Counted from the stretch's first letter, positions 3,002-60,243 are shown. The stretch is DNA of 64,000 nt from Minisyncoccia bacterium (GCA_041738235.1 JBGSQF010000013.1:193899-257898); one strand, 5' to 3'. Program-made: numbers and translations. The notes: a model not told the origin generated them from the sequence alone.

Positions 3002-4708
3002 CTATTTTCTGATCGAACTCAGATCCCTGCCCCTTTCTATAACTCCGTTTTGCTTTATTTTTAATACCGACCGCTTGTTTTTATGACCCTCATCCCTTAA
3101 GGCCCCCATATCCACGGATGCCACGCTCAAGTCTTGTCTCTCGTACACCGGAAGAAATTGATCCGTGTGTCCATGAAATATAGCGTTGATACCCTGCTTT
3201 TTTATGGCATCAATAAAGTTAAACTCATCCTTCCCCGAAAGCCCCCTCCAAAAATATTCCCGGTTATCCGTATTCAGAAAGACGTCACGCAACTGATCAA
3301 AAAAGGGACTCGGCTCCTTATTGTTCAACAACACATCTCTCAATCCCGCCTGATAATATGTATTGATACGATCAACCATCATCTTTATATCCCCCTGCTT
3401 CGTCAATGTCTCCATCATAGAAAATGTCGGATCGGTATGTGTAAACAAACTGTCATCATGCACTACAGCCAATTTGAAATTACACATCGTTTCTAACATT
3501 TCCCTCCCCCGAGAATCCCCTTGCATATTTCTGAGCACCAATTCTCTTTCTGCATTGAGTTGTTGCCAAATACGTTCCTGCTGCCCGGCGTCCAGCGTTG
3601 TGAATGCATCCAGATCAACACCGCTGAGTTGTGAAGACCCGTATCTGCATAGTTCTAATAGCCCGTAATAGTGACCCTGTCGACACGACTCAAAAGCGTC
3701 AGAACTGGCCGCCCCAATCCTACCAGAAAGAAATGAGAGAAAAAAATCTTCATGATTTCCAGAAAGTATATCGATCTCCCCCCCTTGCAACTTCGCCTCT
3801 TTGGATAATTTCGAGATCATGTCTACCGCATCCATCCCATGTGTCTGCCTATCCCCGAGAATATCTCCATGAAAAACTACTTTTCTATCACCGCCAGTCC
3901 AGCGTAAATTTCCACCCGCATCCACAGACACCACCCCCAAACTCTCCAGATTTGCCCTTAAGGCCTCGACACTCCCGAACAGATCTCCTACCGCCATCAC
4001 CTCACTTGCCCGAGGAATTTTTCTCCAGTCCATAGCTTCGGCCTCTCCGATTTTTTTGCTTTGGTCTTTTGGTTGTGGCAGATCAGGACTCAACACCCCA
4101 CCCTCTGCTGTGCCCCGTGTCTTTGTAGAAAGATCTTCTTCCTTGTGACTCACAACCCTAGATTCTTTCAGGTCCGGGGATCCTAACTCTTTCGCCTTCC
4201 GGTATTCTTGAAGAGCCAATTCATACTGAAAGTTGGTCAGAACCTCTCTATCCACATCAGATAGAGTGGGTGAAAATTTTCCTTCCGCACCTTTTTGCTG
4301 AAAATACAAAAATTCCTCACGAAGTTCTGACATTAAGAAACTATCTTCTGCAAGCAGAGATGAAATGTCACCCTCTCCTCTCACAAACCGTCCAACACGA
4401 TCACCGGACAAGGCGATCGCCCGATCCATCAATACTTTGTCATCCCCCTCCAACCCAGCGTAAAAATCATTGAACGCCTTTCTCTTTCCTTCCTCTCTTT
4501 TGATCTCTCTTCGCTGAGTTTCAGCAACGATCTCCTTTCTTTGTCTCAGAACGCTCTCTCTTTTTGCCACATCGACCGGCAAAGCATCATGCAAAAGAAA
4601 CTCCTCCACAAGCTTGCTTGGCAATCCACGCAATTTTGTTGGAATGAAGACCTCTCCTGAGGGAGAAACTTCCCTTTGTTCATGAACATCCATGTGTTTT
4701 ACTATCAC
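3002..4708 (-). CDS. PPP-family (calcineurin-like) metallophosphoesterase with a long N-terminal extension
   Basis: VVFHGDILGDRQ (GDxxDR) and LSGNHEDFF (GNHE) metal-binding motifs lie in the middle of a 568-aa protein. The N-terminal ~230 aa are charged with a coiled-coil character. Confidence 0.6.
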   Translation of the reverse strand: MIVKHMDVHEQREVSPSGEVFIPTKLRGLPSKLVEEFLLHDALPVDVAKRESVLRQRKEIVAETQRREIKREEGKRKAFNDFYAGLEGDDKVLMDRAIALSGDRVGRFVRGEGDISSLLAEDSFLMSELREEFLYFQQKGAEGKFSPTLSDVDREVLTNFQYELALQEYRKAKELGSPDLKESRVVSHKEEDLSTKTRGTAEGGVLSPDLPQPKDQSKKIGEAEAMDWRKIPRASEVMAVGDLFGSVEALRANLESLGVVSVDAGGNLRWTGGDRKVVFHGDILGDRQTHGMDAVDMISKLSKEAKLQGGEIDILSGNHEDFFLSFLSGRIGAASSDAFESCRQGHYYGLLELCRYGSSQLSGVDLDAFTTLDAGQQERIWQQLNAERELVLRNMQGDSRGREMLETMCNFKLAVVHDDSLFTHTDPTFSMMETLTKQGDIKMMVDRINTYYQAGLRDVLLNNKEPSPFFDQLRDVFLNTDNREYFWRGLSGKDEFNFIDAIKKQGINAIFHGHTDQFLPVYERQDLSVASVDMGALRDEGHKNKRSVLKIKQNGVIERGRDLSSIRK

Positions 4709-8424: not shown

Positions 8425-8517
8425 ATAAAAAAACGCTTTGCGCGTTGTTGTTTCCTGAAAAACTTTTGTCGGCGGGGACAAGCGGATCCTGATACTACAA
8501 GAATCCAGCTTGTCCCC
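8425..8517 (-). repeat. Box+hairpin unit X1: AATAAAAAAACGCTTTGCGCG box, then a 10-bp GC stem (GGGGACAAGC/GCTTGTCCCC) with GATACTAC in the loop
   Basis: Direct reading of the sequence. On the minus strand the order is strong hairpin, then mini-hairpin CGCGCAAAGCG plus U-run. This is a terminator-like 3' end for a minus-strand transcript. Confidence 0.5.
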
Positions 8518-8929
8518 ACTTGCTTGAGCCATCAGACCGGGTTGACGCTGACTCGGTGCGCTCCCAGAGCCTGTCGGGCGATCGTCGTGATCTTGGTCAT
8601 GCGATCAGAGTCGGGAGAGCCGTGGAGAATGACAGAAAAATGAGCACTTCCTTTCTGGTCAACCCTTCCACGGACCACCTTGTGACACCCTATCTGCGCT
8701 TAGCATAGCGCTTCGAATAGAGCGCCTTCGCTCCCGAGCTTCCCGTTTCCATTCCTGGGAACCGCCTTAAGAGTAAGTCTTGTCTTCAACTCTTGCCTCT
8801 TTTCTTGTGTCCTCCACCAGAACTCCAAGCTCCGGCTCTGGTATTGACCTGTGTATGAAATTGCCTCCCAATTTCACCTATTTTATATACCCCATTTTAA
8901 GAAAAGATGCAACATATAAATACTCAGAC

Positions 8930-9055
8930 AATAAAAAACACGCTTTGCGCGCGATCATTTTTTACCGATAAAGAATATTACTGGGCGGAGGACTCAGCGG
9001 TTGGGTTTTTATTGGTGCGATACTACGACACCACCCTCGCGCTTTGTCCTCCGCC
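8930..9055 (-). repeat. Box+hairpin unit X2, paralogous to X1: AATAAAAAACACGCTTTGCGCGCG box, then stem GGCGGAGGAC/GTCCTCCGCC with GATACTAC in the loop
   Basis: The box and the loop motif are shared with X1. X2 lies immediately 3' (minus strand) of small ORF 9061..9261. Confidence 0.5.
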
Positions 9056-9523
9056 TACCCCTACCCCTGCTTGAGGCGGCCGGTCGATCCCGGTCCCTCC
9101 CGGAAAAACTCCGGGGAGAGTTCCCGGATCGCGACTGCCGCCGCCGCGAACTCCTCCGTCCCTGGGTCGAATTGACCCTCCCGAAGGAGGTATAGCCTTA
9201 TATCCTCATCGCTCTCATGGGATTCCATTCCCGTCCCCCAAACCATTTCTGCCATTCCCATTCTCTCTTTGTCTTACCCTCCCGAGATTCGTTCCCCCTT
9301 CTCGGTCAGACCTGCCCTAGAAATCGAGGATTTCCAACCCTCGACACCCTAAAGAACTTACCCTGTAATATAACATTTATTTCAAATAAAGTCAATACCC
9401 CGACATTGACATCCATTCTCAGTATGCCACCATATGAGTTACCTATCGGAAACACCGATCCGAGGGTAAAGAATCCGCAGAATTGCGGTAAGTATTCAAC
9501 CCAAGAAACGGAGAAAAAGGAAG

Positions 9524-9982
9524 GTGAATAAAACACCTGTAGAACTGGCGAGCATGCCCCCAGAAGCATTCCACGATCACCTCCTGGGAATCCTTCAGGA
9601 AATGCTCAGCCAGAACGAAAGTGGCGACGCTCCCGACAGAGGATTTTCCAATGCCGGTATCAACGATGAGGTTGATCGTGCTGCCCTGGGGATGCATCGA
9701 GAAACAGCTCAAGGATTCAGACAGATGAAAGGTGCCAACAAGGAGGAGTGTCGGGAAGCTCTCGATCGGATCAAGCACCACCCCGCGGAGATCGAAGTTT
9801 GTCAGAGCGGACTGGATGAGGACGATGGCTGTGAAGGGATCATTAGTCGGGCCCGACTTCAAGCCTACCCAATGACAACCCTTTGCAGGAACTGCCAGGA
9901 AAGGGCGGAGCGCAAAGATCCTTCCAATGGGAGAAACCGAATCGTACATCGACCCATCCGGATAGGAATGCTCAAGACATAG
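9524..9982 (+). CDS. DksA/TraR-family C4 zinc-finger protein
   Basis: C-terminal CQSGLDEDDGCEGIISRARLQAYPMTTLCRNCQ matches CxxC-(17)-CxxC with the conserved I..RL.A.P motif of the DksA/TraR finger. The gene sits in a visibly GC-rich island. The first codon is GTG; an alternative ATG is at 9554. Confidence 0.65.
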   Translation: MNKTPVELASMPPEAFHDHLLGILQEMLSQNESGDAPDRGFSNAGINDEVDRAALGMHRETAQGFRQMKGANKEECREALDRIKHHPAEIEVCQSGLDEDDGCEGIISRARLQAYPMTTLCRNCQERAERKDPSNGRNRIVHRPIRIGMLKT

Positions 9983-10123
9983 CGCTTCCCTCGAAAATTC
10001 CATCGATAAACACGTGAGACTCAAGAGCAACAAAGATTGCCTGAACTCATGACCTAGTGTTTTTATCGATGGATATCGTAGACAGGGTTACTAGGTCCCC
10101 CGCCCGTCTACACCATCATTCAT

Positions 10124-10160
10124 GGACAGTCTTTCCCGCAGGAGCTGTCCATGTTTTTTA
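10124..10160 (+). terminator. Intrinsic terminator after the DksA/TraR gene
   Basis: GGACAG-13 nt loop-CTGTCC followed by TGTTTTTTATT. Confidence 0.45.
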
Positions 10161-10217
10161 TTCTTCAAAAAAATGCTTATGAAAAAATCTGAGACAAAAA
10201 ATATCTATCCTTCAAAC

Positions 10218-11936
10218 TCATTTCTTGTCACTTGTTGCCTGTTGTAATCCCTTGATCATTATCTGCACACTCCGTCTTCCGTTCCAAACGTTTTCCTGAA
10301 TATTGCCCACTACATCGACCACCGCACCACTTGTCCAGGTTGTTTCTCCCCCTCCAAGATGAAATCCGATCCCATCCACAAAACGCTTTTGTTCTCCGTT
10401 TGACACTTCCAAGATCATTTTGAGATGTTTTTCCCCGTTTCCCACATATCTCGTCTCACGAATGATTGCATGAGGAATACAAAACAAGGGTTCGACATTT
10501 CCGATCCCAAATGGCTCGAACTGTTTGAGAAGTCTCACGAAGTCCAATGTAAAAAAATCCAACTCCGCGACGGCGTCTACCTCTTCCTGTATTTCCCTGC
10601 CTAAGTCGCTCTCCTTCATCATTTCTGATACTTGCGCGTGAAATCGCTCATGAAACGCATCGAGATTTTCGTTTTTTATGATCATCCCCGCAGCTTGCTC
10701 ATGTCCTCCATATCGCACTAGTAAATCTCGACACGCCTCTATGGCGCGTATCACACTCACCCCGGGAATACTCCGAAATGATCCGTGACTTTCTGCTTCT
10801 CCCCGCGTAAGGATCGCCGTTGGCTTTTTGAACTCATCGGCTATGCGCCCCGCTACCAACCCTACGATCCCCAAAGGATAATGAGGTTCAGCAGAAACGA
10901 TACACTGCTTATCAATGAATTTCTCACGCACCAAGATCCGTACCTCATCAGTGATCTTTGCCGTTATCTTTTGGCGATCTTTATTATGTTTCTCCAAAGT
11001 CTGGGCAAGTTCGTGCGCACGGTCACGGTCTTTGGTCACCAAGAGTTCATGTGCCACTTTTGCATGCGCCATACGCCCGGCAGCGTTGATCCGTGGCGCA
11101 ATAGAAAATCCTATCGTTTCGGCATTGGGTAGATTTTCCTCGCCAATGCGCATACGTCCAACGGTATACAGTTCCTGCAATCCCGCTCTTCGAGTCTTTG
11201 AAAGCACAATGAGCCCATACTTCACAAGCACACGATTTTCTCCGATTATCGGCATACAGTCCGCTACCGTTCCAACCGCTACTAGATCCAATAGCCATTT
11301 TAATTGGTCTTCTTTTTCTGGCGCAAGTTTCTGATAAACACCCTGCATCACCTTGAACGCCGTTCCCGCGCCACATAGCTCACGGAAAGGATACCCTGAC
11401 TCAGGCATTTTCGGATTGATACTCACTAGTGCCGGTGGAAGCACTTTGGGAATATGGTGGTGATCGATCACTACCACGTCCATTCCGTGTTCCTTGGCCC
11501 ACAAGATCTCATCATAATTCGATATCCCACAATCCACGGTGAATACCAATGACACACCATTGTCCAAAAAATATTGCATGCCCAAAATACTCACCCCATG
11601 CCCCTCAACATTTTTGTCAGGAATATACACGAGCGCTTCAAGCCCCAATACTTCCAGCCCTTCACAAAGGATCGCTGATCCCGTAACTCCATCTGCGTCA
11701 AAATCCCCAAACACGCCTACTTTTTCTTTTTTTTGCAAAGCAACCTGGATGCGATCGACGACGTCACTCATGCCCACGAACAAAAATGGATCGTGAAGAT
11801 GTGTTTCATAATCGGGAAAGAAAAATTGATCACGCTCCTCACTCGTCAAAATACCTCTTTTTTCAAGAAGTCTTTTGACTATTGGATGCTCCAAAATACC
11901 ACTCGGTGTATTTCTCCCAGCTTTTTTAGGATCCAT
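10218..11936 (-). CDS. recJ: Single-stranded-DNA-specific exonuclease RecJ
   Basis: DHH motifs GDFDADGVTG and VIDHHH, plus DHHA1 region (GGHEQAAG). Confidence 0.9.
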   Translation of the reverse strand: MDPKKAGRNTPSGILEHPIVKRLLEKRGILTSEERDQFFFPDYETHLHDPFLFVGMSDVVDRIQVALQKKEKVGVFGDFDADGVTGSAILCEGLEVLGLEALVYIPDKNVEGHGVSILGMQYFLDNGVSLVFTVDCGISNYDEILWAKEHGMDVVVIDHHHIPKVLPPALVSINPKMPESGYPFRELCGAGTAFKVMQGVYQKLAPEKEDQLKWLLDLVAVGTVADCMPIIGENRVLVKYGLIVLSKTRRAGLQELYTVGRMRIGEENLPNAETIGFSIAPRINAAGRMAHAKVAHELLVTKDRDRAHELAQTLEKHNKDRQKITAKITDEVRILVREKFIDKQCIVSAEPHYPLGIVGLVAGRIADEFKKPTAILTRGEAESHGSFRSIPGVSVIRAIEACRDLLVRYGGHEQAAGMIIKNENLDAFHERFHAQVSEMMKESDLGREIQEEVDAVAELDFFTLDFVRLLKQFEPFGIGNVEPLFCIPHAIIRETRYVGNGEKHLKMILEVSNGEQKRFVDGIGFHLGGGETTWTSGAVVDVVGNIQENVWNGRRSVQIMIKGLQQATSDKK

Positions 11937-11978
11937 ATTCGGTGTTTTTATGCTTTGTCAGGAACTCTTCGTCACTCG

Positions 11979-12548
11979 CTAAACTTGTCTCCATCCACAA
12001 CGAGGACAAACGAATTGTGTCGTATGCACGCCCTTTGCCCCAACTTGCAGTTTTAAGATCATGGGCTCATTGCACTCGGCACATTGAAAATGTCCATTAA
12101 AGCTTAGGTCTCGAGCCAAACGTTGTGCATCGAGATTATATTTATCAAAATCCAGCGCGTATTCAGACCCTTCCGCAAATATCGCAGACACAAGGTCCAC
12201 CACCTCTCCGGGAGTCGTGAAATCACGGATAATGAATTCTTTCACCCCAAGATCATTGGCTCGCTTCCGATCTTCCTCTCGTCCAAGGTGAGAAGACATA
12301 AAAAATGGAATATTGGCCGTCAAAACATTTTTCTTAAGTGTCTCGATAAGCGTAAAACCATCCATTCGCGGCATAACAATACCCGTAAATATCACATCTG
12401 GCATTTTGGTCGTTGCCACATCCACTCCCTCAACTCCGTCGTTGGCCTCCAATACCTCAAACCCAGATTGACGAAATATATCCGCATACATCTCTCGCGT
12501 AAACACATCATCATCAACGATCAGAACCTTCCTTTTTGTTTTATTCAT
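11979..12548 (-). CDS. Stand-alone response-regulator receiver domain with a C-terminal zinc ribbon
   Basis: Start chosen at MNKTKRKVLIVDDD. The CheY-like receiver has the phospho-acceptor Asp region (VIFTGIVMPRMDG). The C-terminus CAECN...CPRCGW is a Zn ribbon and no HTH output domain is present. The upstream 29 codons of the ORF-track call overlap the ABC exporter. Confidence 0.7.
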   Translation of the reverse strand: MNKTKRKVLIVDDDVFTREMYADIFRQSGFEVLEANDGVEGVDVATTKMPDVIFTGIVMPRMDGFTLIETLKKNVLTANIPFFMSSHLGREEDRKRANDLGVKEFIIRDFTTPGEVVDLVSAIFAEGSEYALDFDKYNLDAQRLARDLSFNGHFQCAECNEPMILKLQVGAKGVHTTQFVCPRCGWRQV

Positions 12549-12598
12549 AGAACACCTCTTAAACAAATAAAATAGCCTGCGTAAAGTATACCACAAAT

Positions 12599-14365
12599 TT
12601 AATCTCCAATAAACCCGCCGGCCTGCTGCTTCCAAAATGTTGCGTATACCCCCCCTTGATCCACAAGGTCTTTATGCCTCCCCTCTTCCACTACCCTTCC
12701 ATTTTCCACAACTAAAATACGATCCATTTTTTGTATCGTGCTTAAGCGGTGCGCAATAACGATCGTCGTTCGCTCCCTCATAAGTGCATCCAATGCCTCT
12801 TGAATATACTTCTCGCTCATGCTATCCAGTGAACTGGTTGCCTCATCAAGCACTAAGATCGGAGCATCCTTGAGCATCGCTCGAGCGATCGCCACGCGTT
12901 GCCTCTCACCGCCAGAGAGCTTCACGCCCCGCTCTCCCACCAACGTATCGTATCCTTTGGGAAGACTTTCAATAAACTCATGTGCACGAGCCTGCTTGGC
13001 GACAGCAATGATCTCTTCGTCAGTTGCTCCCAACCTTCCATAGGCAATGTTTTCTCGAAGTGTTCGATGAAAAAGAAGGGGTTCTTGTGGAACATAGGAG
13101 ATGCTCCTCCGCAGATCATCCTGACGAATCCGTCGAATGTTCTGTCCATCAATAAGCACCGCTCCGCTGGACACATCCAAGAAGCGAAGGAGTATTTTTG
13201 TGATTGTGGTCTTTCCAGCGCCACTGTGCCCAACAAGCCCAACCTTCTCCCCAGGATGGATATGCAAAGAAAAGTTCTCAAATATCTTTCGATTCCCCTT
13301 TTCATAAACAAAAGACACCTCTTTAAATGCAATATCACCTTTTGTGATATGACACTCTTCAGAGCGTTTTGGATCCCGTACTGAAGGTCTCTTTTCAAAG
13401 ATCTCCACCATTTCCTTCGCATCCGAAAGGGATTTCTCGATATCCATAAGAGCGCGACCAAATCCCCATACCGCGTCGAACGTTCCAAATATATATATCT
13501 GCACAAGCATGATCGTACCCACAGATACCTGTCCTTTGCCCCAAAGGTACACTGTAAAATACATGATCCCAAACTCCAGCACGATAAATAAAGCACCCTG
13601 AATGGCTATTGAATAATTTCTCATAAGCCATGCTCTTCGACGAACACGCTCCCAAAGAGAGGTTGTTTGTTTAAAAGATCGAAGTTCCCGACTTTTTAAG
13701 CCAAACAACTTTATTGTCAACGTATTGCTCACTGTATCCGCGTATTGCGCGATAGACCGAGAGTCCATACTTGCCTCTTCAAGATCATACGGCATCTTTT
13801 TTCGAGAAAAGTATAAGGACAACCAAATAAATAAAACGATCCAGATAAAGTACAATAAACCAATGATCGGCACACTCAAAAGCAACACGATCAGTGACCC
13901 GATCGCCTGAACGGAACGAAATACAATATGCCAAAGAAAGTTATTAAACACCGAGGAAAAAGATCCAATAAATCTCTTGGTCTTCGATACCAATGATCCC
14001 GAAAAATTATCTGCGAAAAAGACATAAGATTGTTCATGCACTTTCTGAAATGCGTAATCGGCAAGATCCCGAAGAACATTACTTTCAAAAAAAACACCAA
14101 AATAATCTCCGAGACGAAACAAGACATTATAAATGATAATAGCCCCTCCCAATACCCACACCCACATAAAAATACTCGAAATAGCCTCATCACTCATAAC
14201 ACCAAGGGATGCCACATCAATTATTTCTTTGTAGATCAAGGGCACGATCGTATTGGCCAATATGCCGGCTATAACATACAACACAAAAACGGCGATCCCT
14301 GATCTTGGATATTTTCTGGCTTGTAACCAATAATACTTAAGTATGGTGCGCAGCGCTCTGTTCAC
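12599..14365 (-). CDS. ABC transporter, fused permease/ATPase exporter (MsbA-like)
   Basis: Six N-terminal TM segments plus the NBD, with Walker A GHSGAGKTT, signature LSGGERQRVAIARA and Walker B ILVLDEATS. Confidence 0.9.
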   Translation of the reverse strand: MNRALRTILKYYWLQARKYPRSGIAVFVLYVIAGILANTIVPLIYKEIIDVASLGVMSDEAISSIFMWVWVLGGAIIIYNVLFRLGDYFGVFFESNVLRDLADYAFQKVHEQSYVFFADNFSGSLVSKTKRFIGSFSSVFNNFLWHIVFRSVQAIGSLIVLLLSVPIIGLLYFIWIVLFIWLSLYFSRKKMPYDLEEASMDSRSIAQYADTVSNTLTIKLFGLKSRELRSFKQTTSLWERVRRRAWLMRNYSIAIQGALFIVLEFGIMYFTVYLWGKGQVSVGTIMLVQIYIFGTFDAVWGFGRALMDIEKSLSDAKEMVEIFEKRPSVRDPKRSEECHITKGDIAFKEVSFVYEKGNRKIFENFSLHIHPGEKVGLVGHSGAGKTTITKILLRFLDVSSGAVLIDGQNIRRIRQDDLRRSISYVPQEPLLFHRTLRENIAYGRLGATDEEIIAVAKQARAHEFIESLPKGYDTLVGERGVKLSGGERQRVAIARAMLKDAPILVLDEATSSLDSMSEKYIQEALDALMRERTTIVIAHRLSTIQKMDRILVVENGRVVEEGRHKDLVDQGGVYATFWKQQAGGFIGD

Positions 14366-14400
14366 AAAGAATCGTTAATGCCAATTTGAGTTAAAAATAT

Positions 14401-14865
14401 TCACCACGTGATCCTCTTATATCTTCCCATAAGTTCTGCCTGCTCGAGCATGTGTCCTTCGATAGCACGGAGTAGCTCTGCTTTCGAAGAATCTCTTTCG
14501 AGATCAAGGACAACATCAAGTGCATATAACCGAAAAAAATACCGATGCTCTCGATCTGGCGGACAGGGCGGTGTCCAGTCATGACGACCGCTCGTATTAA
14601 TACCAATAGTGCCAACTGGAACTCCTCCCTCAGTTATACCCTGTGTTTCAGGCGACATATTCCACACAAGCCAGTGGTTCCACATTCCATCCTCACGAAC
14701 ATACTGCGGAACATCCGGATCTTCCACAATAAGAACCAAAGATACCGCGTTCTGAGGAACACCTTCAAATACAAGCGGTGGACTGACACGCTCTCCGTCA
14801 CACGTGTATTTCGAGGGGATCCTCTCTCCGTTCTTGAATTGTGTACTCGTGATCTGCATATTCAT
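14401..14865 (-). CDS. YbhB/YbcL-family PEBP (Raf kinase inhibitor-like) protein
   Basis: The HRYFFRLYALD and DPDVP motifs are diagnostic of bacterial PEBP. Confidence 0.85.
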   Translation of the reverse strand: MNMQITSTQFKNGERIPSKYTCDGERVSPPLVFEGVPQNAVSLVLIVEDPDVPQYVREDGMWNHWLVWNMSPETQGITEGGVPVGTIGINTSGRHDWTPPCPPDREHRYFFRLYALDVVLDLERDSSKAELLRAIEGHMLEQAELMGRYKRITW

Positions 14866-14961
14866 AATTTGAAATATTGTGAACTGACCACTCGTAGTAT
14901 CTTGGATGGGTTACATAAAAAGACAATTGCCACACCACTCATTATACACTATACTCACCCT

Positions 14962-15903
14962 ATGCCCATACTTGAAATAAAAGATCTCGAAAAAAAGTAT
15001 ACCAACAGTGTACAGGCACTCAAAAATGTTACTCTTAACATCAACAAGGGAGAACTTTTTGCACTCCTTGGACCCAACGGTGCAGGAAAAACCACGCTCA
15101 TTGGTATTGTTTGTGGGACAGTTCGCAAAACAGGTGGCACGATCATGGTAGATGGACACGATGCGGAAAGTAATTGGCGTGCGGTGCGTCAACTTATCGG
15201 ATATGTTCCTCAAGAACTCACGCTCAATCCATTCGACACCGTATGGGACACTCTCTTTTATCAACGTGGCTTCTACGGACGTCCGCGAAATGATGCTCTC
15301 CTTGAAAAGATCCTCAAAGACCTTTCTCTCTGGGATAAAAGAAGATCCATGATCCGTGAACTCTCGGGGGGCATGAAACGACGCGTGCTCATCGGCAAGG
15401 CCCTCACCAATGAACCCCGGATACTTTTTCTCGATGAGCCCTCGGCAGGAGTAGATGTGGAACTCCGCAAAGGCATGTGGGATTTCGTGGGCAAACTTAA
15501 GACAGAAGGCGTAACCGTTGTTCTTACCACACACTATCTCGAAGAAGCGGAGTTACTTGCCGATCGCATCGGCATCATCCGAGAAGGAGAGCTAGCCTTT
15601 GTAGAAGAAAAACAAGCGCTTCTTCATCGATTTGGCGAAAAAACGCTCACCCTTTTTCTTGAAAAGCCCATCGACACTATCCCCCCTTCACTCAAAGGTT
15701 TTGACCTGATCCTTTCGGAAAACAAAAAAAATCTGATATATCACTACTCCAAAGGTCAAACGAACGTCACGGATCTTTTAAAAAACCTCCACAGTGAACG
15801 AATTTTCTACCAGAATATGGAAACGGCAACCAGCTCACTTGAAGACATTTTCTTACAGCTCATAGAAAAAAAGGGGGAGACCCAGAAAATCACAAATCTC
15901 TAA
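14962..15903 (+). CDS. ABC transporter ATP-binding protein
   Basis: Start set at MPILEIKDLEKKY (ATG 14962). Walker A GPNGAGKTT, signature LSGGMKRR and Walker B LFLDEPSAG are present. The upstream 139 codons of the ORF-track call have no support. Confidence 0.9.
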   Translation: MPILEIKDLEKKYTNSVQALKNVTLNINKGELFALLGPNGAGKTTLIGIVCGTVRKTGGTIMVDGHDAESNWRAVRQLIGYVPQELTLNPFDTVWDTLFYQRGFYGRPRNDALLEKILKDLSLWDKRRSMIRELSGGMKRRVLIGKALTNEPRILFLDEPSAGVDVELRKGMWDFVGKLKTEGVTVVLTTHYLEEAELLADRIGIIREGELAFVEEKQALLHRFGEKTLTLFLEKPIDTIPPSLKGFDLILSENKKNLIYHYSKGQTNVTDLLKNLHSERIFYQNMETATSSLEDIFLQLIEKKGETQKITNL

Positions 15904-15914
15904 GACTTGCCCAT

Positions 15915-16676
15915 ATGAATTGGATCGGACTCAAAATGATCATTTGGAAAGAGTTGCAACGAACGCGACAAGTCTTTTTGCAAGCCGTGCTTTCCCCATT
16001 TCTCAGCACATTTTTGTATTTTATCGTGTTTGGAACGGCTATTGGGTCACAAATTGGAACCGTATCAGGCGTTTCCTATGGGCAATTCATTGTTCCCGGA
16101 ATGATGGCTATGGCGATCGTTATGAACTCCGTACTGGCCGCATCCAGCGGGATCTATTTCTTGCGTTTTATGGGAACGATCAATGATCTACTCACCGCAC
16201 CCCTTTCTTATATAGAGATCGTTCTCGGTTTCTCCATTGCTTCAGCGGCACGCACATCACTTATCTCAGCACTGATCTACCTTACAGCCCTACTCTTCGT
16301 ACCACTTCCAATAGCGCATCCTTTTTGGTTCTTCTTTTTTCTCTTTGGAAGTGCGATGGGATTTTCTTTTTTTGGTCTTCTGCTGGGTATCTGGGCAAAG
16401 GATTTCGAGCAACTCTCCTTTGTCCCCACCATCATTATCACCCCCTTGAGCTTCTTGGGTGGGGTTTTTTATTCTCTTACGATGCTTCCCCCTCTTTGGC
16501 AAAAACTTACTCTTATCAATCCTCTCTTCTATTTGGTGGACGCCTTACGCTATAGCTTACTCGGTATCTCTTCAACATCGCTTACCATCAGTATTCTCTT
16601 TATCCTAGTGCTTTGGATAGTCCCACTGATCTTACTCAGAAAGATATTCTTGTCAGGATATAAAATACGAAATTAG
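15915..16676 (+). CDS. ABC-2 type transporter permease
   Basis: Six-TM, 253-aa protein immediately downstream of the ABC ATPase. Confidence 0.8.
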   Translation: MNWIGLKMIIWKELQRTRQVFLQAVLSPFLSTFLYFIVFGTAIGSQIGTVSGVSYGQFIVPGMMAMAIVMNSVLAASSGIYFLRFMGTINDLLTAPLSYIEIVLGFSIASAARTSLISALIYLTALLFVPLPIAHPFWFFFFLFGSAMGFSFFGLLLGIWAKDFEQLSFVPTIIITPLSFLGGVFYSLTMLPPLWQKLTLINPLFYLVDALRYSLLGISSTSLTISILFILVLWIVPLILLRKIFLSGYKIRN

Positions 16677-16699
16677 GAATGCCTTTAAAAAACTTGTCG

Positions 16700-16752
16700 A
16701 AAAATAAAACAGGCGCACCGAAGGAATCCCTTCCTTTGGCACGCCTTTTTTT
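16700..16752. terminator. Hairpin plus flanking T-runs between the ABC permease (+) and small ORF 16771..17013 (-)
   Basis: AGGCGCACC...GGCACGCCT pairs perfectly only as RNA from the minus strand (G-U wobbles). U-runs flank it on both sides. Confidence 0.4.
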
Positions 16753-16770
16753 GCATTGGGTCAGGCAGAG

Positions 16771-17013
16771 TTACTGTCTAGCCCGCTCAAAATGTCCCAG
16801 TGGTGCCGGAGGAGGAAGTCCCCCATCCCGTTCATCACCGAACAATATTTGCCCTCTGCCGGCATTTACAGCCGCCGCATCGAGCTGATTCTGAGCCCTC
16901 TTCTTGTATTCCTTTTCCTCCGTTGTTTCCTTATCAGGCTGGTTGTCGTACTGCGATGTCACCGTCTTTTCCTCCGCCCATTTGGGCATGTTGTTCCATG
17001 CGGAACTCCACAT
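16771..17013 (-). CDS. Small hypothetical protein (first gene of the small-protein array)
   Basis: 80-aa ORF with a terminator hairpin directly 3' on the minus strand. Confidence 0.35.
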   Translation of the reverse strand: MWSSAWNNMPKWAEEKTVTSQYDNQPDKETTEEKEYKKRAQNQLDAAAVNAGRGQILFGDERDGGLPPPAPLGHFERARQ

Positions 17014-17094
17014 GGACGCTTTTGTAAATATAGACCCCCTAACTGAGGTTGGCGCTCTCGCTGAGAAGCTTCTTTTTGAAAGCGCCTCACCACA

Positions 17095-17385
17095 TTAGGT
17101 CGGCCGAGCGTTTATGCGCGCTCTCTCCGCCTCGAGTCGAGCAACCCACTGGCGAAGTTGAGCATTGGTGGTTTCGAGGTCGCCAACCTGGGCCGCGAGA
17201 GTGGCATTCCTCCCCCGCTCTACAGCGAGCTCCAACGTAAGGTTCTGAACCTGCTGCTCACTGAGCGCCGAGGCACTCCCAAGCATCGCTATTTTCGTAT
17301 TTGCTTGCCCCAGTTCAGCCGCAAGGCGAGTATTTTCGGCAAGATACTTCTTTTCGTCAGGCGTCATATTTGCTCCGATTGCCAT
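17095..17385 (-). CDS. Small coiled-coil protein
   Basis: 96 aa with heptad-like LxxLxxE repeats (...LTLELAVERGRNATLAAQVGDLETTNAQLRQWVARLEAERAR). It has its own sigma70-like promoter. Confidence 0.5.
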   Translation of the reverse strand: MAIGANMTPDEKKYLAENTRLAAELGQANTKIAMLGSASALSEQQVQNLTLELAVERGRNATLAAQVGDLETTNAQLRQWVARLEAERARINARPT

Positions 17386-17424
17386 TCAAACTTATCCCAC
17401 GGGGATCCGTAGGAATACATTCTT

Positions 17425-17453
17425 ACCCTAGGTCGTTTTTTGCTTGTCGTCAA
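17425..17453 (-). promoter_or_regulatory. Sigma70-like promoter TTGACG-17-TAGGGT for gene 17095..17385
   Basis: Minus-strand read gives -35 TTGACG (17448-17453), a 17-nt spacer and -10 TAGGGT (17425-17430), about 30 nt upstream of the ATG. An almost identical copy sits at 17802-17830. Confidence 0.5.
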
Positions 17454-17455
17454 CC

Positions 17456-17517
17456 TCAAAAAAAGCGAAAACCGGCACAGTCACTGAAAAGGATCTCCCT
17501 TCCTGACCGTGCCGGTT
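17456..17517 (-). terminator. Intrinsic terminator of gene 17538..17768
   Basis: Stem AACCGGCAC/GTGCCGGTT followed on the minus strand by UUUUCGCUUUUUUU. Confidence 0.55.
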
Positions 17518-17537
17518 GATTTTCCCTGCTCTCCTAT

Positions 17538-17768
17538 TTAGGGGTCATCCCCCTCGAGACGGATCCTCCTGTTTAGCCCCCCAAGCCGTCCATTTTCCAA
17601 CTCCAACTCCCGAATTCGTTTTTGTGTTTCAGTAAGCTGGATGAGAAGGCTCGTATTTCGATCAAGAGCGTCCGAGAGCTTACTCACAAGAGCTTCGATG
17701 CGCCTCTCGTAATCATCGCGTGTATTTTTTTCATCGGTCATCACGCGTATCTCCACTTGTCCTATCAA
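17538..17768 (-). CDS. Small coiled-coil protein; the real start is probably MTDEK at 17741
   Basis: 76 aa and coiled-coil (LTETQKRIRELELENGRL). The MTDEK N-terminus resembles the MTPDEK of the neighbouring gene. Confidence 0.5.
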   Translation of the reverse strand: MIGQVEIRVMTDEKNTRDDYERRIEALVSKLSDALDRNTSLLIQLTETQKRIRELELENGRLGGLNRRIRLEGDDP

Positions 17769-17801
17769 TGTCTCGCAAGACTCTGCGAGAATACCTTTTT
17801 A

Positions 17802-17830
17802 CCCTAGGTTGTTTTATAAATATCGTCAAC
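17802..17830 (-). promoter_or_regulatory. Second copy of the TTGACG-17-TAGGGT promoter, for gene 17538..17768
   Basis: Same -35/-10 hexamers and the same 17-nt spacing as the 17425-17453 copy. Confidence 0.5.
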
Positions 17831-17835
17831 TTCAT

Positions 17836-17887
17836 AAAAAGCGAAAACCGGCACGTCGTTGGGATACTACCCATTGACCGTGCCGGC
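17836..17887 (-). terminator. Intrinsic terminator of gene 17910..18308, with an AUACUA hexaloop
   Basis: Stem CCGGCACG/CGTGCCGG with inner GGG-AUACUA-CCC, followed by a U-run (minus strand). Confidence 0.55.
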
Positions 17888-17909: not shown

Positions 17910-18308
17910 CTAAATTACATGCTCGCCCGCAACCTCATAGAAATTCCACCAACGAGTGACCCCCTCCTGAGGACGCTCGTTGTGATGGAAAACAGGGAGT
18001 TGACTCCGGAGCGCGATAACCTCGAGATGAAGACGCTCACGCTCTGCCTCTAGGTACTGAACCTCTTGGGACAGCTCTGTGTTTTCCCGCTCAAAGCGCC
18101 TGATCTTCTTGTCCTTTTCTTTCGCTTCATTTTGTAGCGCTGACACCATCCTTGTGAGACGTGCTATTTCCCCTTTGGAGCTCCCTTTTTGTTCTCCTTT
18201 GCCCTTTCCATTTACCCCGGGATCATCTCCCCAGCTCATGCTCATATCTTCTCCCTCGCCTCGTTGGGCGATTTGTTGACCAAAAACGAAACCTTTCAAA
18301 AAACCCAT
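17910..18308 (-). CDS. Small coiled-coil protein with a Gly/Lys-rich N-terminal segment
   Basis: 132 aa; ...IARLTRMVSALQNEAKEKDKKIRRFERENTELSQEVQYLEAERERLHLEVIALRSQL. A TTGACA-17-TATTGT promoter lies at 18327-18355 on the minus strand. Confidence 0.5.
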   Translation of the reverse strand: MGFLKGFVFGQQIAQRGEGEDMSMSWGDDPGVNGKGKGEQKGSSKGEIARLTRMVSALQNEAKEKDKKIRRFERENTELSQEVQYLEAERERLHLEVIALRSQLPVFHHNERPQEGVTRWWNFYEVAGEHVI

Positions 18309-18326: not shown

Positions 18327-18355
18327 GACAATACCCTTTTTCTCGTACTTTGTCA
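18327..18355 (-). promoter_or_regulatory. Sigma70-like promoter TTGACA-17-TATTGT for gene 17910..18308
   Basis: Read on the minus strand; positioned about 20 nt upstream of the ATG at 18308. Confidence 0.45.
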
Positions 18356-18431
18356 ATGTTTAACACCTCCCGATTCCAATACAATTTTCTGAACAACTCC
18401 AGAGTCAACAATCAGATATAGTCCTTATAAC

Positions 18432-25049: not shown

Positions 25050-26129
25050 TTAAAACTGTCTAATAAATCTCAGATTCCCACTGTGAAATAACCGAATATC
25101 GTCGATCTTATATTTCATCATCGCGAGTCGCTCCACGCCAAATCCCCAAGCAAATCCTTGATAACGATTTCGCTTATATCCCGCAGCTACAAACACGTTT
25201 TGGTTGACCATTCCAGCTCCTCCGATCTCCAACCATCCGGTTTGCTTACAAGAACTACACTTTTCTCCCCCACACACCATGCAACTAATATCAAATTCAA
25301 AACTCGGCTCCGTAAAAGGAAAAAAACTCGGTCGAATTCTTACCTTCGTTTCCCGTCCAAAAAATCTTGAAAAAAACTCCTCACCCACATACTTGAAATT
25401 TGCCACATTGACATCGTCTCCCACCATCAGTGCTTCAAATTGGTGAAACGTATGTTCATGTGAGGCGTCGGTGGCTTCATTACGAAAACATTTCCCCGGA
25501 ACAATAATACGAAATGGCGGGGTGTGTGATTGCATATAATGCACCTGCACCGGCGAAGTGTGCGGACGAAGCGCTAACCTTTCCCCATTCTCATTCTTAT
25601 CCGAAAGCCAAAAAGTATCCCAAGCATCACGTGCTGGATGATTGGCAGGAACATTTAAAACATCGAAATTATACAACTCTGTCTCTATCTCTGTCCCATC
25701 AGCGACATCGAACCCCATTGAGGAAAAAATACCTTCTATGTCACGGAGTACATGCGTGATCGGGTGCAAGTGTCCGATCTCAACCTTCTTCCCCGGAAGT
25801 GTCACATCGATCCGCTCACCCTCCCAATCAAAGTCTCCTTGCTCGATCTGAGCCTTTCGATCATCCAGTGCGAACAGAATATCATTTTTTACTGCCTGTA
25901 CTTGTGGCCCAAATTCTCGACGCTCTTCAGGACTCATCGACCCCAAAGACTTCAGCACTTCCGTCAGTGCCGATCTCCGACCCAAGAATTTCGCTCGAGC
26001 ACTTTCTAAAGCATCCAAAGTATCGACTTCAGAGATCGCCTGTATCGCTTCAGTTTTGATCACTTCGATATTTTTATTCATAGAACTATCGTAACAGATA
26101 TTTATTCGTTTGCAAAGAGGACAAAACAA
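25050..26129 (-). CDS. pheS: Phenylalanine--tRNA ligase alpha subunit (likely start MNKNIEV at 26081)
   Basis: Class II motifs (FRNEATDASHEHTFHQFEALMVG; GWLEIGGAGMV) and adjacency to pheT. Confidence 0.9.
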   Translation of the reverse strand: MFCPLCKRINICYDSSMNKNIEVIKTEAIQAISEVDTLDALESARAKFLGRRSALTEVLKSLGSMSPEERREFGPQVQAVKNDILFALDDRKAQIEQGDFDWEGERIDVTLPGKKVEIGHLHPITHVLRDIEGIFSSMGFDVADGTEIETELYNFDVLNVPANHPARDAWDTFWLSDKNENGERLALRPHTSPVQVHYMQSHTPPFRIIVPGKCFRNEATDASHEHTFHQFEALMVGDDVNVANFKYVGEEFFSRFFGRETKVRIRPSFFPFTEPSFEFDISCMVCGGEKCSSCKQTGWLEIGGAGMVNQNVFVAAGYKRNRYQGFAWGFGVERLAMMKYKIDDIRLFHSGNLRFIRQF

Positions 26130-26170
26130 AAACGGGACCGTGTACGGCGAGTCCCGTTTGTTGTTTTTTT
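26119..26170. terminator. Hairpin AACGGGAC-12 nt-GTCCCGTT with T-runs on both sides, 3' of the RRM gene
   Basis: Seen directly in the sequence; on the minus strand it sits immediately 3' of the RRM protein gene. Confidence 0.5.
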
Positions 26171-26179
26171 GCGAAGAGT

Positions 26180-26437
26180 TTATCGTTCCTCGAGAGGACG
26201 AGCTTCATTCACAACGAGTGTTCGTCCGCCGAATTCCTTTCCGTCGAACGTCTCAATTGCCTTGTCCGCATCAGCGTCAGCCTCGAATTCTACGAATCCG
26301 AATCCACGTGATCGGTTGGTCATTCGGTCCACGATGATGCGAACCGAGGAGACAGCTCCCGCCTCAGAAAAAGCGGCCTTCAACTCCTCTTCTGTGGTGG
26401 AATAAGGAAGTCCACCAACATATAATTTCTTTGCCAT
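26180..26437 (-). CDS. RRM-type RNA-binding protein
   Basis: Start at MAKKLYVGGL (RNP-2) with RGFGFVEF (RNP-1), 85 aa. The longer ORF-track N-terminus is not supported. Confidence 0.85.
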   Translation of the reverse strand: MAKKLYVGGLPYSTTEEELKAAFSEAGAVSSVRIIVDRMTNRSRGFGFVEFEADADADKAIETFDGKEFGGRTLVVNEARPLEER

Positions 26438-26599
26438 AACAAAACATGTTTTACCGATTAATAAGCGTAAGGCCTCTTGAACGCTTACCTTCCGGGTGAA
26501 ACATGCCGTACACACGGTATCCACGCACAGAAGAAACACTTTCTTGAGAATACTTACTGCTTTACAGTATACACTATCCGACCAAAAAAGTCAATCATT

Positions 26600-35561: not shown

Positions 35562-35633
35562 TGGGGCGTAGCCAAGCGGTAAGGCAGGGGCCTTTGAAGC
35601 CCCCATGCGTAGGTTCGAATCCTACCGCCCCAG
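35562..35633 (+). tRNA. tRNA-Gln (anticodon UUG)
   Basis: The cloverleaf aligns position-by-position with E. coli tRNA-Gln: U1-A72, D-arm GCCAAGCGGTAAGGC, anticodon loop CUUUGAA and T-arm GTAGGTTCGAATCCTAC. No CCA is encoded. Confidence 0.85.
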
Positions 35634-36759: not shown

Positions 36760-37264
36760 TTAAAACATTCTCAAATGTTTTACCAAGAAAGCATCATTCT
36801 GCGCGTGGGCTGTTGGAATATGAATAATGGGAAGATTGGCATTTTTGTATACTTTATCTACAAATTCGTCTCGTTTCCTTCTCCAATAATTTCTATGTGA
36901 TTCCCCATCCAATTCTATGGCAACGAGAGGGAAAGAAGTTTTCCGATCGCACAAAAGAAAGTCAACGTGCTTGGATTGTATCTTGTTTCGTAAAACGGCC
37001 TTTGTACTTTGGCTTTGATTTTGTACAACACTAAAAATATCCCAAAGGCGCACTTTCGAAAGAACGACGTATTTATCCCCCACAACGCGTGTGATCGATC
37101 GTATCGTAAAATTTTCTTTCCGAATGGTTAAACAGTGCTCGTATCACATACATTGGCTCGGTCATTTCCTCTACCATCTTCCTCTGTCGTTTTTTTAGGT
37201 ATGCCCCAAACAAGACTAGAAAGAGAAAAAGTATAATGAGAACGAGCAGAAAGATGTATTGCAT
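36760..37264 (-). pseudogene. DUF2726/NERD-like nuclease-fold gene split by a frameshift at a G5 run (~37075-37083)
   Basis: The N-terminal TM segment plus ...SERKFYDTIDHTRCGG* (37073..37264) and DKYVVLSKVRLWDIF...DFLLCDRKTSFPLVAIELDGESH (36760..37083) are contiguous DUF2726 sequence in two frames. Removing one G from GGGGG fuses them. Confidence 0.55.
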
Positions 37265-59853: not shown

Positions 59854-60243
59854 CTAGATATTGATACTATTCACGATCTCATCCACCGTCTTCTTTGGCT
59901 CTTCTGCAGCTGGCTGAGTAGCAGAAGCGGAAGTAGAAGTTGACGTGGAAGCCTCTTCACGCTCGCTCTTACGCACATGTGTCGATCCTTCCGGCTCATT
60001 GATCTTGAGATTCACTCGAGCATTGTTTCGCGCACCGATAACTCGGAGCAGTGTTCGAAGTGCTTTGGCGGTCATACCATCGCGACCAATCACCATACCC
60101 ATATCCTGTGCATGAACATCCAACGAGATTAAAACACCCATTTCATCGATCTTTCGCTCTACCTTTACTGACTCGGGATTATCAACCAACATTTTGACAA
60201 CGTATTCGATAAACTCCTTATCTGTGTATTTTTCTTCGCTCAT
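59854..60243 (-). CDS. KH-domain RNA-binding protein (KhpA/YlqC-like) with an acidic, Ser/Thr-rich tail
   Basis: VIGRDGMTAKALRTLLRVIG KH GxxG-type core. Confidence 0.8.
   Translation of the reverse strand: MSEEKYTDKEFIEYVVKMLVDNPESVKVERKIDEMGVLISLDVHAQDMGMVIGRDGMTAKALRTLLRVIGARNNARVNLKINEPEGSTHVRKSEREEASTSTSTSASATQPAAEEPKKTVDEIVNSINI

Follow-up and report, generated by a model that had tools for sequence, protein, structure and literature searches.

Bacterial aconitases have been reported as moonlighting binders of the IRP type. REP elements contain the conserved tetranucleotide GTAG, and integron attC sites are imperfect hairpins with R''/R' core sites (RYYYAAC ... GTTRRRY) at their foot; they follow promoterless cassettes and are usually accompanied by an integrase. 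In a pMV158-type origin the loop of IR-I presents TACTACG/AC in unpaired form, and repB and a direct-repeat bind locus are nearby. This 9-mer, located in a hairpin loop, is the nick sequence of pMV158 RepB (PMC1851628), and another HUH recognition sequence is the CRESS-DNA virus nonanucleotide TAGTATTAC (PMC11892606). Among IRE loops, UAGUA(C/U), which carries a U-A pair across the loop, is listed as motif 9a in the SIREs motif table (PMC12230718).

A UAGUAU hexaloop is found at the tip of three hairpins, H1, H2 and H3, in the DNA analysed here, a 64-kb stretch (the window) from an uncultured Moranbacteria-like CPR bacterium. The reading preferred here, tentatively and at a little under an even chance, is that the hairpins are lineage-specific cis-acting 3′-UTR elements whose loop would be read by a putative trans-acting factor. 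Minus-strand folding confirms the observation of an earlier note on this DNA that the three share a hexaloop closed by a G-C pair, although the position noted for H3 was one base off. Because every UAGUAU loop is closed by G-C, the word held in common is the 8-mer GUAGUAUC (GATACTAC on the plus strand). The coordinates of the hairpins and of the features around them are collected in Table 1.

Table 1. Hairpins, genes and transcription signals discussed in the text (window positions).
Feature	Position	Strand	Description
H1	8474-8517	-	44-nt hairpin; apical G-UAGUAU-C, loop 8492-8497
H2	8984-9055	-	72-nt long unbranched hairpin; apical G-UAGUAU-C, loop 9020-9025
H3	17848-17886	-	39-nt hairpin; apical G-UAGUAU-C, loop 17864-17869
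Sister terminator of H3	17470-17517	-	Duplicated, internal control; loop GAGA region
p66 (unit 1)	9061-9261	-	66-aa orphan protein gene; H2 is its 3′-UTR hairpin
Unit 1 promoter	9367-9395	-	Sigma-70-like, TTGACT-17-TATATT with extended TG; near-invariant in relative
Unit 1 small terminator	8939-8953	-	Canonical, CGCGCGCAAAGCGUG + U6; 30 nt downstream of H2
Unit 2 coding remnant	8532-8877	-	H1 is its 3′-UTR hairpin
Unit 2 promoter	8884-8912	-	Sigma-70-like, TTGCAT-17-TATATA; read from sequence; conserved in the relative (L012)
Unit 2 small terminator	8432-8446	-	Canonical, AACGCGCAAAGCGUU + U7; 27 nt downstream of H1
Coiled-coil orphan gene	17910-18308	-	Maximal ORF 132 aa; H3 is its terminator
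Coiled-coil orphan promoter	18328-18356	-	Sigma-70-like, TTGACA-17-TATTGT
PEBP-family gene	14401-14865	-	

The stems beneath the loop cannot be aligned with one another. H1 is built from helices of 10, 4 and 4 bp, with a single bulged U on the 5′ side at each of the two junctions, and folds at -28 kcal/mol (z = -5.2 in a 111-nt context). H2 coincides with an inverted repeat (I2) and folds at -39 kcal/mol; from base to tip it comprises a 10-bp base helix, two helices of 4 bp, an A-rich 3′ bulge, another 4 bp, a bulged U and a final 2 bp. H3 has helices of 8, 2 and 4 bp with a bulged G and a 2x2 internal loop. Directly below the loop, H1 therefore offers 4-5 bp and then a bulged U, H2 2 bp and then a bulged U, and H3 4 bp and then the internal loop. 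H3 has the form of an intrinsic terminator, with CCGGCACG...CGUGCCGG followed directly by UUUUCGCUUUUU. The U-run that the earlier note had placed after each hairpin, and with it the label of a terminator subtype, thus holds for H3; after H1 and H2 the U-rich stretches are weak or displaced, and neither has this form. Instead, 25-45 nt beyond each of these two lies a separate small canonical terminator, ACGCGCAAAGCGU followed by U6-7.

Each hairpin stands at the 3′ end of a promoter-to-terminator unit, and the three genes concerned are unrelated and lineage-specific. H2 begins 3 nt past the tandem in-frame stops (UAG GGG UAG) of p66, which shares 65% aa identity with its counterpart in the only close relative found (sample ERR14790927, locus L012, 3898-4092), with all indels in frame. 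Further p66 homologues were not found among 1.84 billion cluster representatives, nor did p66 match Pfam or PHROG. The ORF whose 3′ UTR contains H1 is disrupted; its homologue in the relative, at L012 3370-3714, is an intact ORF of 114 aa. The window's copy carries a frameshift of 1 nt as well as a TAA in frame; in tblastn it matches over 84 aa at 75% identity, with a change of frame and an internal stop, and the same sequence is present in an independent Logan assembly (L005). H1 itself is intact despite the disruption upstream. The coiled-coil orphan, which likely starts at 18239 or 18245 (MS(MS)WGDDPG), matched only itself among 5.8 billion proteins, and its divergent orthologue of 108 aa is located at 826-1152 of the relative's second locus, L013. 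The two islands that hold these units are related, as had been proposed, in being of the same kind: both carry small minus-strand orphan genes with their own promoters and structured UTRs, and both combine raised GC with fast protein divergence.

Recurrence of one loop on unrelated stems had been claimed to be non-random, and several lines of evidence bear this out. For the 8-mer, 0.74 occurrences are expected in the window and five are seen, a count reached in none of 100 shuffles. Of the 77 hexaloops on minus-strand local hairpins that fold at -20 kcal/mol or better, UAGUAU alone is seen three times. In simulation, the probability of some hexamer turning up three times came to 0.00025 with 25 hairpins and to 0.014 with 77. 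Different loops, for instance CUUCGG, CGAAAG and CGGGAG, cap other terminators of the window, and none of six occurrences of the 8-mer falls in a hairpin loop in about 650 kb of other loci, a set that leaves out the window's duplicate contig and the close relative.

As the earlier note's reading implied, the homologous loci in the relative keep the motif. Between the two genomes, aa identities are 90% for RecJ, 90% for a BNR protein and 97% for RRF, and island 2 coding DNA is only about 60-70% identical. All three hairpins are present, H1 and H2 in L012 (~3315-3362 and ~3818-3895) and H3 in L013 (~765-803), and their loops and apical halves are 100% identical. The perfect runs span 36 nt in H1 (8484-8519), 35 nt in H2 (9003-9037) and 26 nt in H3 (17852-17877), which rank among the longest in a 16.8 kb alignment averaging 78% nt identity. 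To judge from this alignment, conservation of the hairpins lies far above the local background. The nine substitutions within the hairpins are all structure-neutral: four sit in bulges or internal loops, one is a G-to-A change beside a bulge that is absorbed through re-pairing, and four are C-to-U changes that produce G.U pairs on the minus strand. The stem substitutions are all of this last kind, which points to RNA, and the pattern on the minus strand is of the RNA type. The relative's hairpins also fold better on the minus than on the plus strand (-23.6 vs -16.6, -42.5 vs -34.0 and -16.7 vs -15.3 kcal/mol). Identical apices beside strongly diverged coding sequence support, on the basis of two genomes, purifying selection on the UAGUAU loop. 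Island 1 is absent beside recJ in relatives whose RecJ is 71-79% identical, so the element appears to be very narrowly distributed.

Another account is that H1-H3 merely terminate transcription or block 3′ exonucleases. They would share the loop by chance or through common descent from one duplicated 3′ module, and little time since divergence, not a function of the loop, would explain why it is conserved. H3 is a canonical terminator, the small terminators after H1 and H2 are nearly identical (CGCGCAAAGCG), which hints at such a duplicated module, and only two genomes are available for comparison. Like Rho-independent terminators in general, the hairpins are GC-rich and stand at the 3′ ends of transcription units, and H3 has the canonical U-tract. 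The loops of such terminators, however, are normally unconstrained, and a duplicated sister of H3 provides an internal control. It has the same stem base (CCGGCAC...GUGCCGG) and U-tract as H3 under a different apex, and between the two genomes only its stem base and U-tract are kept, the apex having changed at ~14/45 positions. Similarly, the loop of the unit 1 small terminator has gone from GCAAA to GUGAA in the relative, while its stem gained a G.U pair. Ordinary terminator apices are thus not frozen in this lineage, whereas those of H1-H3 are unchanged. H1 and H2, without an adjacent U-tract, are dispensable for termination because separate terminators come after them. Their stems and that of H3 cannot be aligned, and common ancestry with complete turnover of the stem but retention of the 8-mer would itself imply selection on the loop. 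Given also how rarely three identical hexaloops arise in simulation, the plain terminator or stabiliser reading is judged possible but unlikely.

Alternatively, the loops could function as kissing or seed sequences, pairing with GAUACUAC sites in other transcripts, either as part of a small RNA derived from the 3′ UTR or as targets of a putative antisense RNA. An unpaired stretch at 14894-14901, in the 5′ UTR of the PEBP-family gene and ~28 nt upstream of its AUG, is perfectly complementary over 8 nt, and the complementarity grows to 10 nt with the apex of H2. The succession of hairpin, spacer and terminator at H1 and H2 is also reminiscent of small RNAs. However, one extra 8-mer is within the expectation for the window, and the copy at 55256 forms the codons R-Y-Y inside a gene, where it is conserved as coding sequence. 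The sequence upstream of H1 and of H2 shows no internal promoter, and in the relative an insertion of ~190 nt parts H1 from its terminator. RNA-RNA pairing is accordingly regarded as rather improbable.

The hairpins might instead act as DNA, serving as nick or recombination sites on extruded single strands for an HUH endonuclease (rolling-circle Rep, relaxase or transposase) or a REP/RAYT-like system. The minus-strand TAGTAT-C at the tip matches the first 6 bases of TAGTATTAC, and the plus strand of H2 at 9021-9029 reads TACTACGAC, the exact pMV158 RepB nick 9-mer. Yet the TAC of the nonanucleotide is absent, no Rep, relaxase, transposase or RAYT is encoded among the window's ~60 genes, and there are no phage or viral matches. 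The G.U-type stem substitutions of the minus strand would be A.C mismatches on the plus strand, favouring minus-strand RNA, and each site coincides exactly with the 3′ end of a transcription unit. A role at the DNA level is therefore considered very unlikely. The individual candidates were rejected as follows. For a CRESS-type origin, whose loop contains NAGTATTAC and is nicked before AC, H1-H3 provide TAGTAT only, positions 7-9 being CAG, CGC and CCC and base-paired. For a pMV158-type origin, the 9-mer is confined to H2, where the G/A nick position is paired in the stem, while H1 and H3 read TACTACAAG and TACTACCCA. REP elements are alike in being extragenic GC-rich palindromes after stop codons that can stabilise upstream mRNA, but REP copies share a stem with GTAG at its 5′ foot and come as many palindromes with a RAYT transposase gene, whereas H1-H3 have unrelated stems and GTAG in the loop. 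The feet of the hairpins (GGGGACAAGC, GGCGGAGGAC and CCGGCACG) are not attC core sites, every unit has its own promoter and the window holds no integrase.

The preferred reading, of a 3′-UTR element recognised through its loop, would work as follows. H1, H2 and H3 would be RNA stem-loops in the 3′ UTRs of three minus-strand mRNAs, H1 and H2 sitting between the stop codon and the separate small terminator and H3 also acting as intrinsic terminator for the coiled-coil orphan. The recognition determinant would be the invariant G-UAGUAU-C plus what lies directly beneath it, a few base pairs and a 5′-side bulge or internal loop. The putative trans-acting factor would most likely be an RNA-binding protein, setting transcript fate at the level of 3′-end formation or processing, stability or translation. 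That the loop is the part read, that its reader is a protein and that the outcome is post-transcriptional control are inferred. The loop is unchanged in the sister genome while the adjoining genes diverge fast, and in this respect it looks like a real RNA recognition signal. The earlier proposal of a recognised element consequently fits better than chance or plain terminators, with the reservation made above for H1 and H2. Several points weigh against it. There are only three instances, all within 64 kb, and the two genomes in which the motif was seen give no real covariation depth; the comparison of orthologues in these two does not separate constraint on the loop from constraint on the whole apex. 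The geometry below the loop varies among H1-H3 and is looser than in most protein operators. The loop is absent from three other orphan genes of island 2 and from a yteA-like gene, and is thus not a general feature of the islands.

Comparison with catalogued RNA families places H1-H3 in no Rfam family: only a tRNA and LOOT RNA are recovered from the window at gathering thresholds, and E-value-mode scans of both islands return only sub-threshold chance matches, for instance to miRNA models. The closest loop is that of the IRE, which raises the alternative that H1-H3 are IRE-like elements bound by aconitase or an IRP-type moonlighting protein. UAGUAU lies within the accepted set of CAGUGN and its SELEX variants, fitting the SELEX-derived motif 9a (PMC12230718). 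H1 allows a drawing in which the upper stem has 5 bp and one nucleotide bulges out on the 5′ side, and the UTR location is shared. The loop could, on structural reasoning, adopt an AGU pseudo-triloop with a U1-A5 cross-loop pair and a flipped-out U6, like the IRE U-A variant. The IRE, however, has an unpaired 5′-side C (C8) exactly 5 bp below the loop, whereas this position is a bulged U in H1, the bulge of H2 is again a U and lies 2 bp from the loop, and H3 has an AA/AC internal loop; the upper stem ranges from 2 to 5 bp and is not fixed. CPR bacteria generally lack the TCA cycle and aconitase, so that neither aconitase nor an IRP is expected in this host. Aconitase is absent from the window's ~60 genes, and the genes carrying H1-H3 have no iron link. 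An IRE-like element is thus extremely improbable.

The HUH Rep origins share with H1-H3 a hairpin tip of TAGTAT (minus strand) or TACTAC (plus strand), and differ in the features set out above. The MS2 and PP7 coat-protein operators, U1A hairpin II and lambda boxB have other loop sequences and belong to phage or snRNA contexts, whereas H1-H3 lie in the 3′ UTRs of chromosomal orphan genes and have no known cognate protein gene. In their design these operators are nevertheless alike, combining a conserved loop and closing pair with stems that are free to vary and, as in H1 and H2, a bulge separated from the loop by a few base pairs.

H1, H2 and H3 are minus-strand hairpins in the 3′ UTRs of orphan genes. 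Folding of the minus strand agrees with the earlier note in giving all three an unpaired UAGUAU hexaloop closed by a G-C pair. The word they share is therefore an 8-mer, GUAGUAUC (GATACTAC on the plus strand); the apical loop is the sole part common to the three hairpins, whose stems are mutually unalignable. The note had placed H3 one base off, and had described a U-run after each hairpin: H3 is indeed followed directly by a U-tract, but H1 and H2 are not. The comparison with shuffled sequence that it had proposed was run, and the window contains five copies of the loop 8-mer where 0.74 are expected, a count reached in 0 of 100 dinucleotide shuffles; the remaining two of the five copies lie outside hairpins. 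UAGUAU is also the sole hexaloop with three occurrences among the 77 found in minus-strand local hairpins of -20 kcal/mol or better. With loops drawn from the hexamer distribution of the window itself, the simulated chance of any hexaloop triple is 0.00025 for 25 hairpins and 0.014 for 77. Approximately 650 kb of other loci, leaving aside the close relative and L005 (a duplicate contig of the window), contain six copies of the 8-mer, none of which forms a hairpin loop. Loop variants with one mismatch (stem of at least 3 bp) are scattered and mostly intragenic, and none is a strong 3′-UTR hairpin. The plus-strand form, ATACTA, was also considered as a sigma-G-like or sigma-70 -10 element and rejected, as it has no suitable -35 and no plus-strand gene downstream.

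Positions of the hairpins, of the perfect runs that cover them and of the island 1 genes
Feature	Position	Strand	Details
H1	8474-8517	minus	loop 8492-8497; folding energy -28 kcal/mol
H2	8984-9055	minus	loop 9020-9025; folding energy -39 kcal/mol
H3	17848-17886	minus	loop 17864-17869; folding energy -19 kcal/mol
Perfect run over H1	8484-8519		36 nt, window vs relative
Perfect run over H2	9003-9037		35 nt, window vs relative
Perfect run over H3	17852-17877		26 nt, window vs relative
yteA-like gene	9524-9982	plus	island 1; divergent, DksA/TraR-type zinc finger
Unit 1 promoter	9395-9367	minus	island 1
Unit 1 ORF	9261-9061	minus	66 aa (p66); followed by H2
Unit 1 small terminator	8953-8939	minus	
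Unit 2 promoter	8912-8884	minus	island 1
Unit 2 coding remnant	8877-8532	minus	followed by H1
Unit 2 small terminator	8446-8432	minus	

The source bacterium belongs to the CPR and is close to Candidatus Moranbacteria, with a RecJ 46-47% identical to GTDB Moranbacteria representatives. The window is a dense housekeeping chromosome segment encoding aminoacyl-tRNA synthetases, RRF, RecJ, Mur/FtsW, SMC, RNase III and glycosyltransferases, and no Rep, relaxase, transposase or integrase gene was found within it. Both GC-rich islands (8.4-10 kb, with H1 and H2, and 16.7-18.3 kb, with H3) are clusters of small minus-strand genes rather than non-coding DNA, and every gene has a sigma-70-like promoter and structured UTRs on both the 5′ and the 3′ side. 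Island 2 comprises four small ORFs, most of them coiled-coil, the first of which (17910-18308, minus) has H3 as its intrinsic terminator. The 132-aa product of this ORF finds only itself and no homologue among 5.8 billion proteins, the yteA-like protein has a single homologue in the same set, and p66 retrieves nothing but itself among 1.84 billion cluster representatives. The small island proteins match no Pfam domain beyond generic coiled-coil noise and no PHROG family. Global paralogy of units 1 and 2 was rejected, since MAFFT shows no homology beyond the small terminator; the word CUCAAGCA, common to both units, is coding sequence in unit 1, is not kept in the relative and was likewise discarded. 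Between the islands, the longest ORF overstates an ABC ATPase gene (14545-15903, plus), whose real start is ATG 14962 (MPILEIKDLEKKY), directly preceded by a TTGCCA-17-TATACT promoter; the 139 codons before this ATG overlap an opposite-strand PEBP gene.

Only one close relative was present in the searchable collections, in Logan sample ERR14790927. One of its contigs (L012) was reached via the single homologue of the zinc-finger protein, and another (L013) via a 90%-cluster member of UDP-glucose dehydrogenase. Housekeeping proteins are 90-97% identical between window and relative, island proteins only about 65%, and nucleotide identity averages 78% across the 16.8 kb aligned. H1, H2 and H3 are all present in the relative with loops and apical stems unchanged, and the perfect runs over them are among the longest of the whole alignment. 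None of the nine substitutions within the hairpins breaks a pair: four C-to-U changes convert G-C pairs to G.U on the minus strand, a single G-to-A next to a bulge is accommodated by re-pairing, and the other four fall in bulges or internal loops. Accordingly, the relative's minus strand folds better than its plus strand for all three hairpins. This combination is the signature of a minus-strand RNA structure, not of a plus-strand or duplex DNA element.

Such substitutions also bear on a reading of the hairpins as DNA nick sites for an HUH enzyme, which is highly improbable. The loop does resemble TAGTATTAC (PMC11892606), and the exact 9-mer of pMV158 RepB, TACTACGAC (PMC1851628), occurs in the plus strand of H2. 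However, the 9-mer is missing from H1 and H3, the nick position would be base-paired, no Rep gene lies in the window, and the substitutions point to RNA.

The unit 2 ORF is disrupted in the window and intact, at 114 aa, in the relative (L012 3370-3714). With the relative as reference, the lesions are a 1-nt insertion causing a frameshift and a CAA-to-TAA in-frame stop, and the independent Logan assembly L005 has the same disrupted sequence. Despite this, the unit 2 promoter, H1 and the terminator are intact. Other elements of the islands can be compared in the same way. An AT-rich, MITE-like insertion of ~190 nt, bounded by terminal inverted repeats (GAACCTGTTCAAAATCTTT ... AAAGATTTCGAACAGATTC), lies between the relative's H1 and small terminator (L012 about 3095-3300); the window has no such insertion. 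The yteA-like gene has a 3′ UTR (9983-10165, plus) that forms three strong hairpins (z = -5.6) and includes a 38-nt run (10051-10088) identical in the relative, whose protein is only 66% identical. In island 2, the minus-strand 5′-UTR hairpins 17395-17425 and 17770-17800 (CCUACGGAUCCCCGUGGG and UCUCGCAGAGUCUUGCGAGA) are kept in L013, where their changes are compensatory or of the wobble kind (G.U to A-U, U-A to C-G), a pattern that suggests structured leaders on the island 2 orphan mRNAs.

An internal control is provided by the duplicated sister terminator of H3 (17470-17517), which has in common with it 12 nt of the 5′ foot and 19 nt of the 3′ foot with the U-tract, but carries a different apex. 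Between the two genomes, approximately 14 of 45 positions changed in this apex while the foot did not, against only 2 of 39 positions in H3. In the unit 1 small terminator, the loop changed from GCAAA to GUGAA in the relative, and other terminators in the window carry other loops. In this lineage the sequence of an apex is thus not usually under constraint, whereas in the UAGUAU hairpins it is. Together with the loop statistics, this control weakens the alternative, an unlikely one, that H1-H3 do no more than stabilise or terminate their transcripts and have the same loop by coincidence or inheritance.

The best-supported reading is that H1-H3 act in cis as 3′-UTR RNA elements, with the apical UAGUAU loop as the part that a trans-acting factor would recognize. 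Below the loop, the short helix and the 5′-side irregularity probably contribute to recognition. The reader is most likely a protein, since the motif consists of a short single-stranded loop carried by free stems; the outcome may be control of 3′-end formation, stability or translation of the orphan mRNAs. The data show that the hairpins exist, where they lie, that they are under selection and that they are RNA structures, while what reads them and to what effect is inferred. An RNA partner has also been considered, the loop kissing complementary sites in other transcripts. One such site, GAUACUAC at 14894-14901 (minus), is a perfect complement of the loop and closing pair, is predicted to be unpaired, and has 10 nt of complementarity with the H2 apex; the 5′ UTR that contains it belongs to a PEBP-family gene (14401-14865), whose AUG is ~28 nt further downstream. 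The site may be a genuine target or a coincidental match. Kissing is nonetheless rather improbable, as one extra 8-mer is within expectation, and the copy at 55256, rejected as a motif instance, is merely R-Y-Y codons within a conserved gene.

A more specific form of the protein-read element is put forward tentatively, and is itself rather doubtful: the G-UAGUAU-C hairpins would serve as operators in a small regulon, post-transcriptional and found in this CPR lineage only, in which a dedicated RNA-binding protein (RBP) recognizes an IRE-like AGU pseudo-triloop and co-regulates fast-evolving orphan small-protein genes. The loop could fold in this way via a U1-A5 pair. A candidate for the loop-reading RBP is an 85-aa RRM protein (26180-26437). 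The region spanning its gene, ~110-nt 5′ UTR and terminator (26109-26560, minus) is 97.8% identical at the nucleotide level to L013 10146-10595, against the 78% average, with perfect runs of 136, 86, 53 and 51 nt that are the longest of the whole comparison. Possible causes of this extreme conservation are an autoregulatory RNA structure or recent transfer. KhpA (59854-60243) and RNase III (62745-63440) are further candidate partners of the hairpins. Such a regulon, if true, would be a bacterial loop-specific RBP-operator system without described counterpart.

As far as seen, only two genomes, from a very narrow lineage, have the UAGUAU element. It was found in none of the GTDB species representatives, among which the best RecJ matches (46-47% identity) are all Moranbacteria. 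In five relatives whose RecJ is 71-79% identical, other genes follow recJ and hairpins of this kind are absent. JGI metagenomes yielded no close relative (best BNR-protein match 40-42% identical). IMG/VR contains no exact match to the three apex sequences; given this and insignificant PHROG matches, a phage origin was rejected. At gathering thresholds, Rfam detects only tRNA and LOOT RNA in the whole window, and E-value mode returns only chance-level matches for both islands. The LOOT RNA (RF03000; 37297-37418, minus) scores 59 bits, above its gathering score of 46. It sits within 36.4-38.7 kb, in a low-GC patch (32-38%) directly downstream of a tRNA (35562-35633) and adjoining a DUF2726 gene (36760-37083) and unannotated ORFs; the patch looks like a small integrated element.

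CPR bacteria are uncultured and have tiny genomes with many genes of no known function. To our knowledge, post-transcriptional control has scarcely been described in this group (Patescibacteria). The hairpins are of moderate interest as a handle on such control and on orphan-gene biology. A loop strictly conserved across unrelated orphan 3′ UTRs offers bait for a binding protein or partner RNA, and a search key for a co-regulated gene set in the lineage. Should the loop have no specific reader, H1-H3 would be unusually conserved mRNA-end hairpins of local interest only. The analysis also reveals the two GC-rich islands, seemingly non-coding, as clusters of fast-evolving small genes whose RNA signals are better kept than their proteins.

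Among described systems, membership in attC, REP, HUH and IRE elements was considered and rejected in every case. There is a likeness to the IRE, for which UAGUA(C/U) is an accepted loop variant (PMC12230718) and whose pseudo-triloop shape the hairpins may share. H1-H3 nevertheless lack the defining C bulge and the fixed 5-bp upper stem, and an aconitase partner was not seen in the window and is not expected in a CPR bacterium; an IRE/aconitase system is thus barely credible here. The resemblance is one of shape, not membership, and the comparison of the motif rests on two genomes. The UAGUAU hairpin is a real, selected, lineage-specific RNA motif that no described family matches, and it is familiar in kind: a conserved loop on free stems in UTRs.
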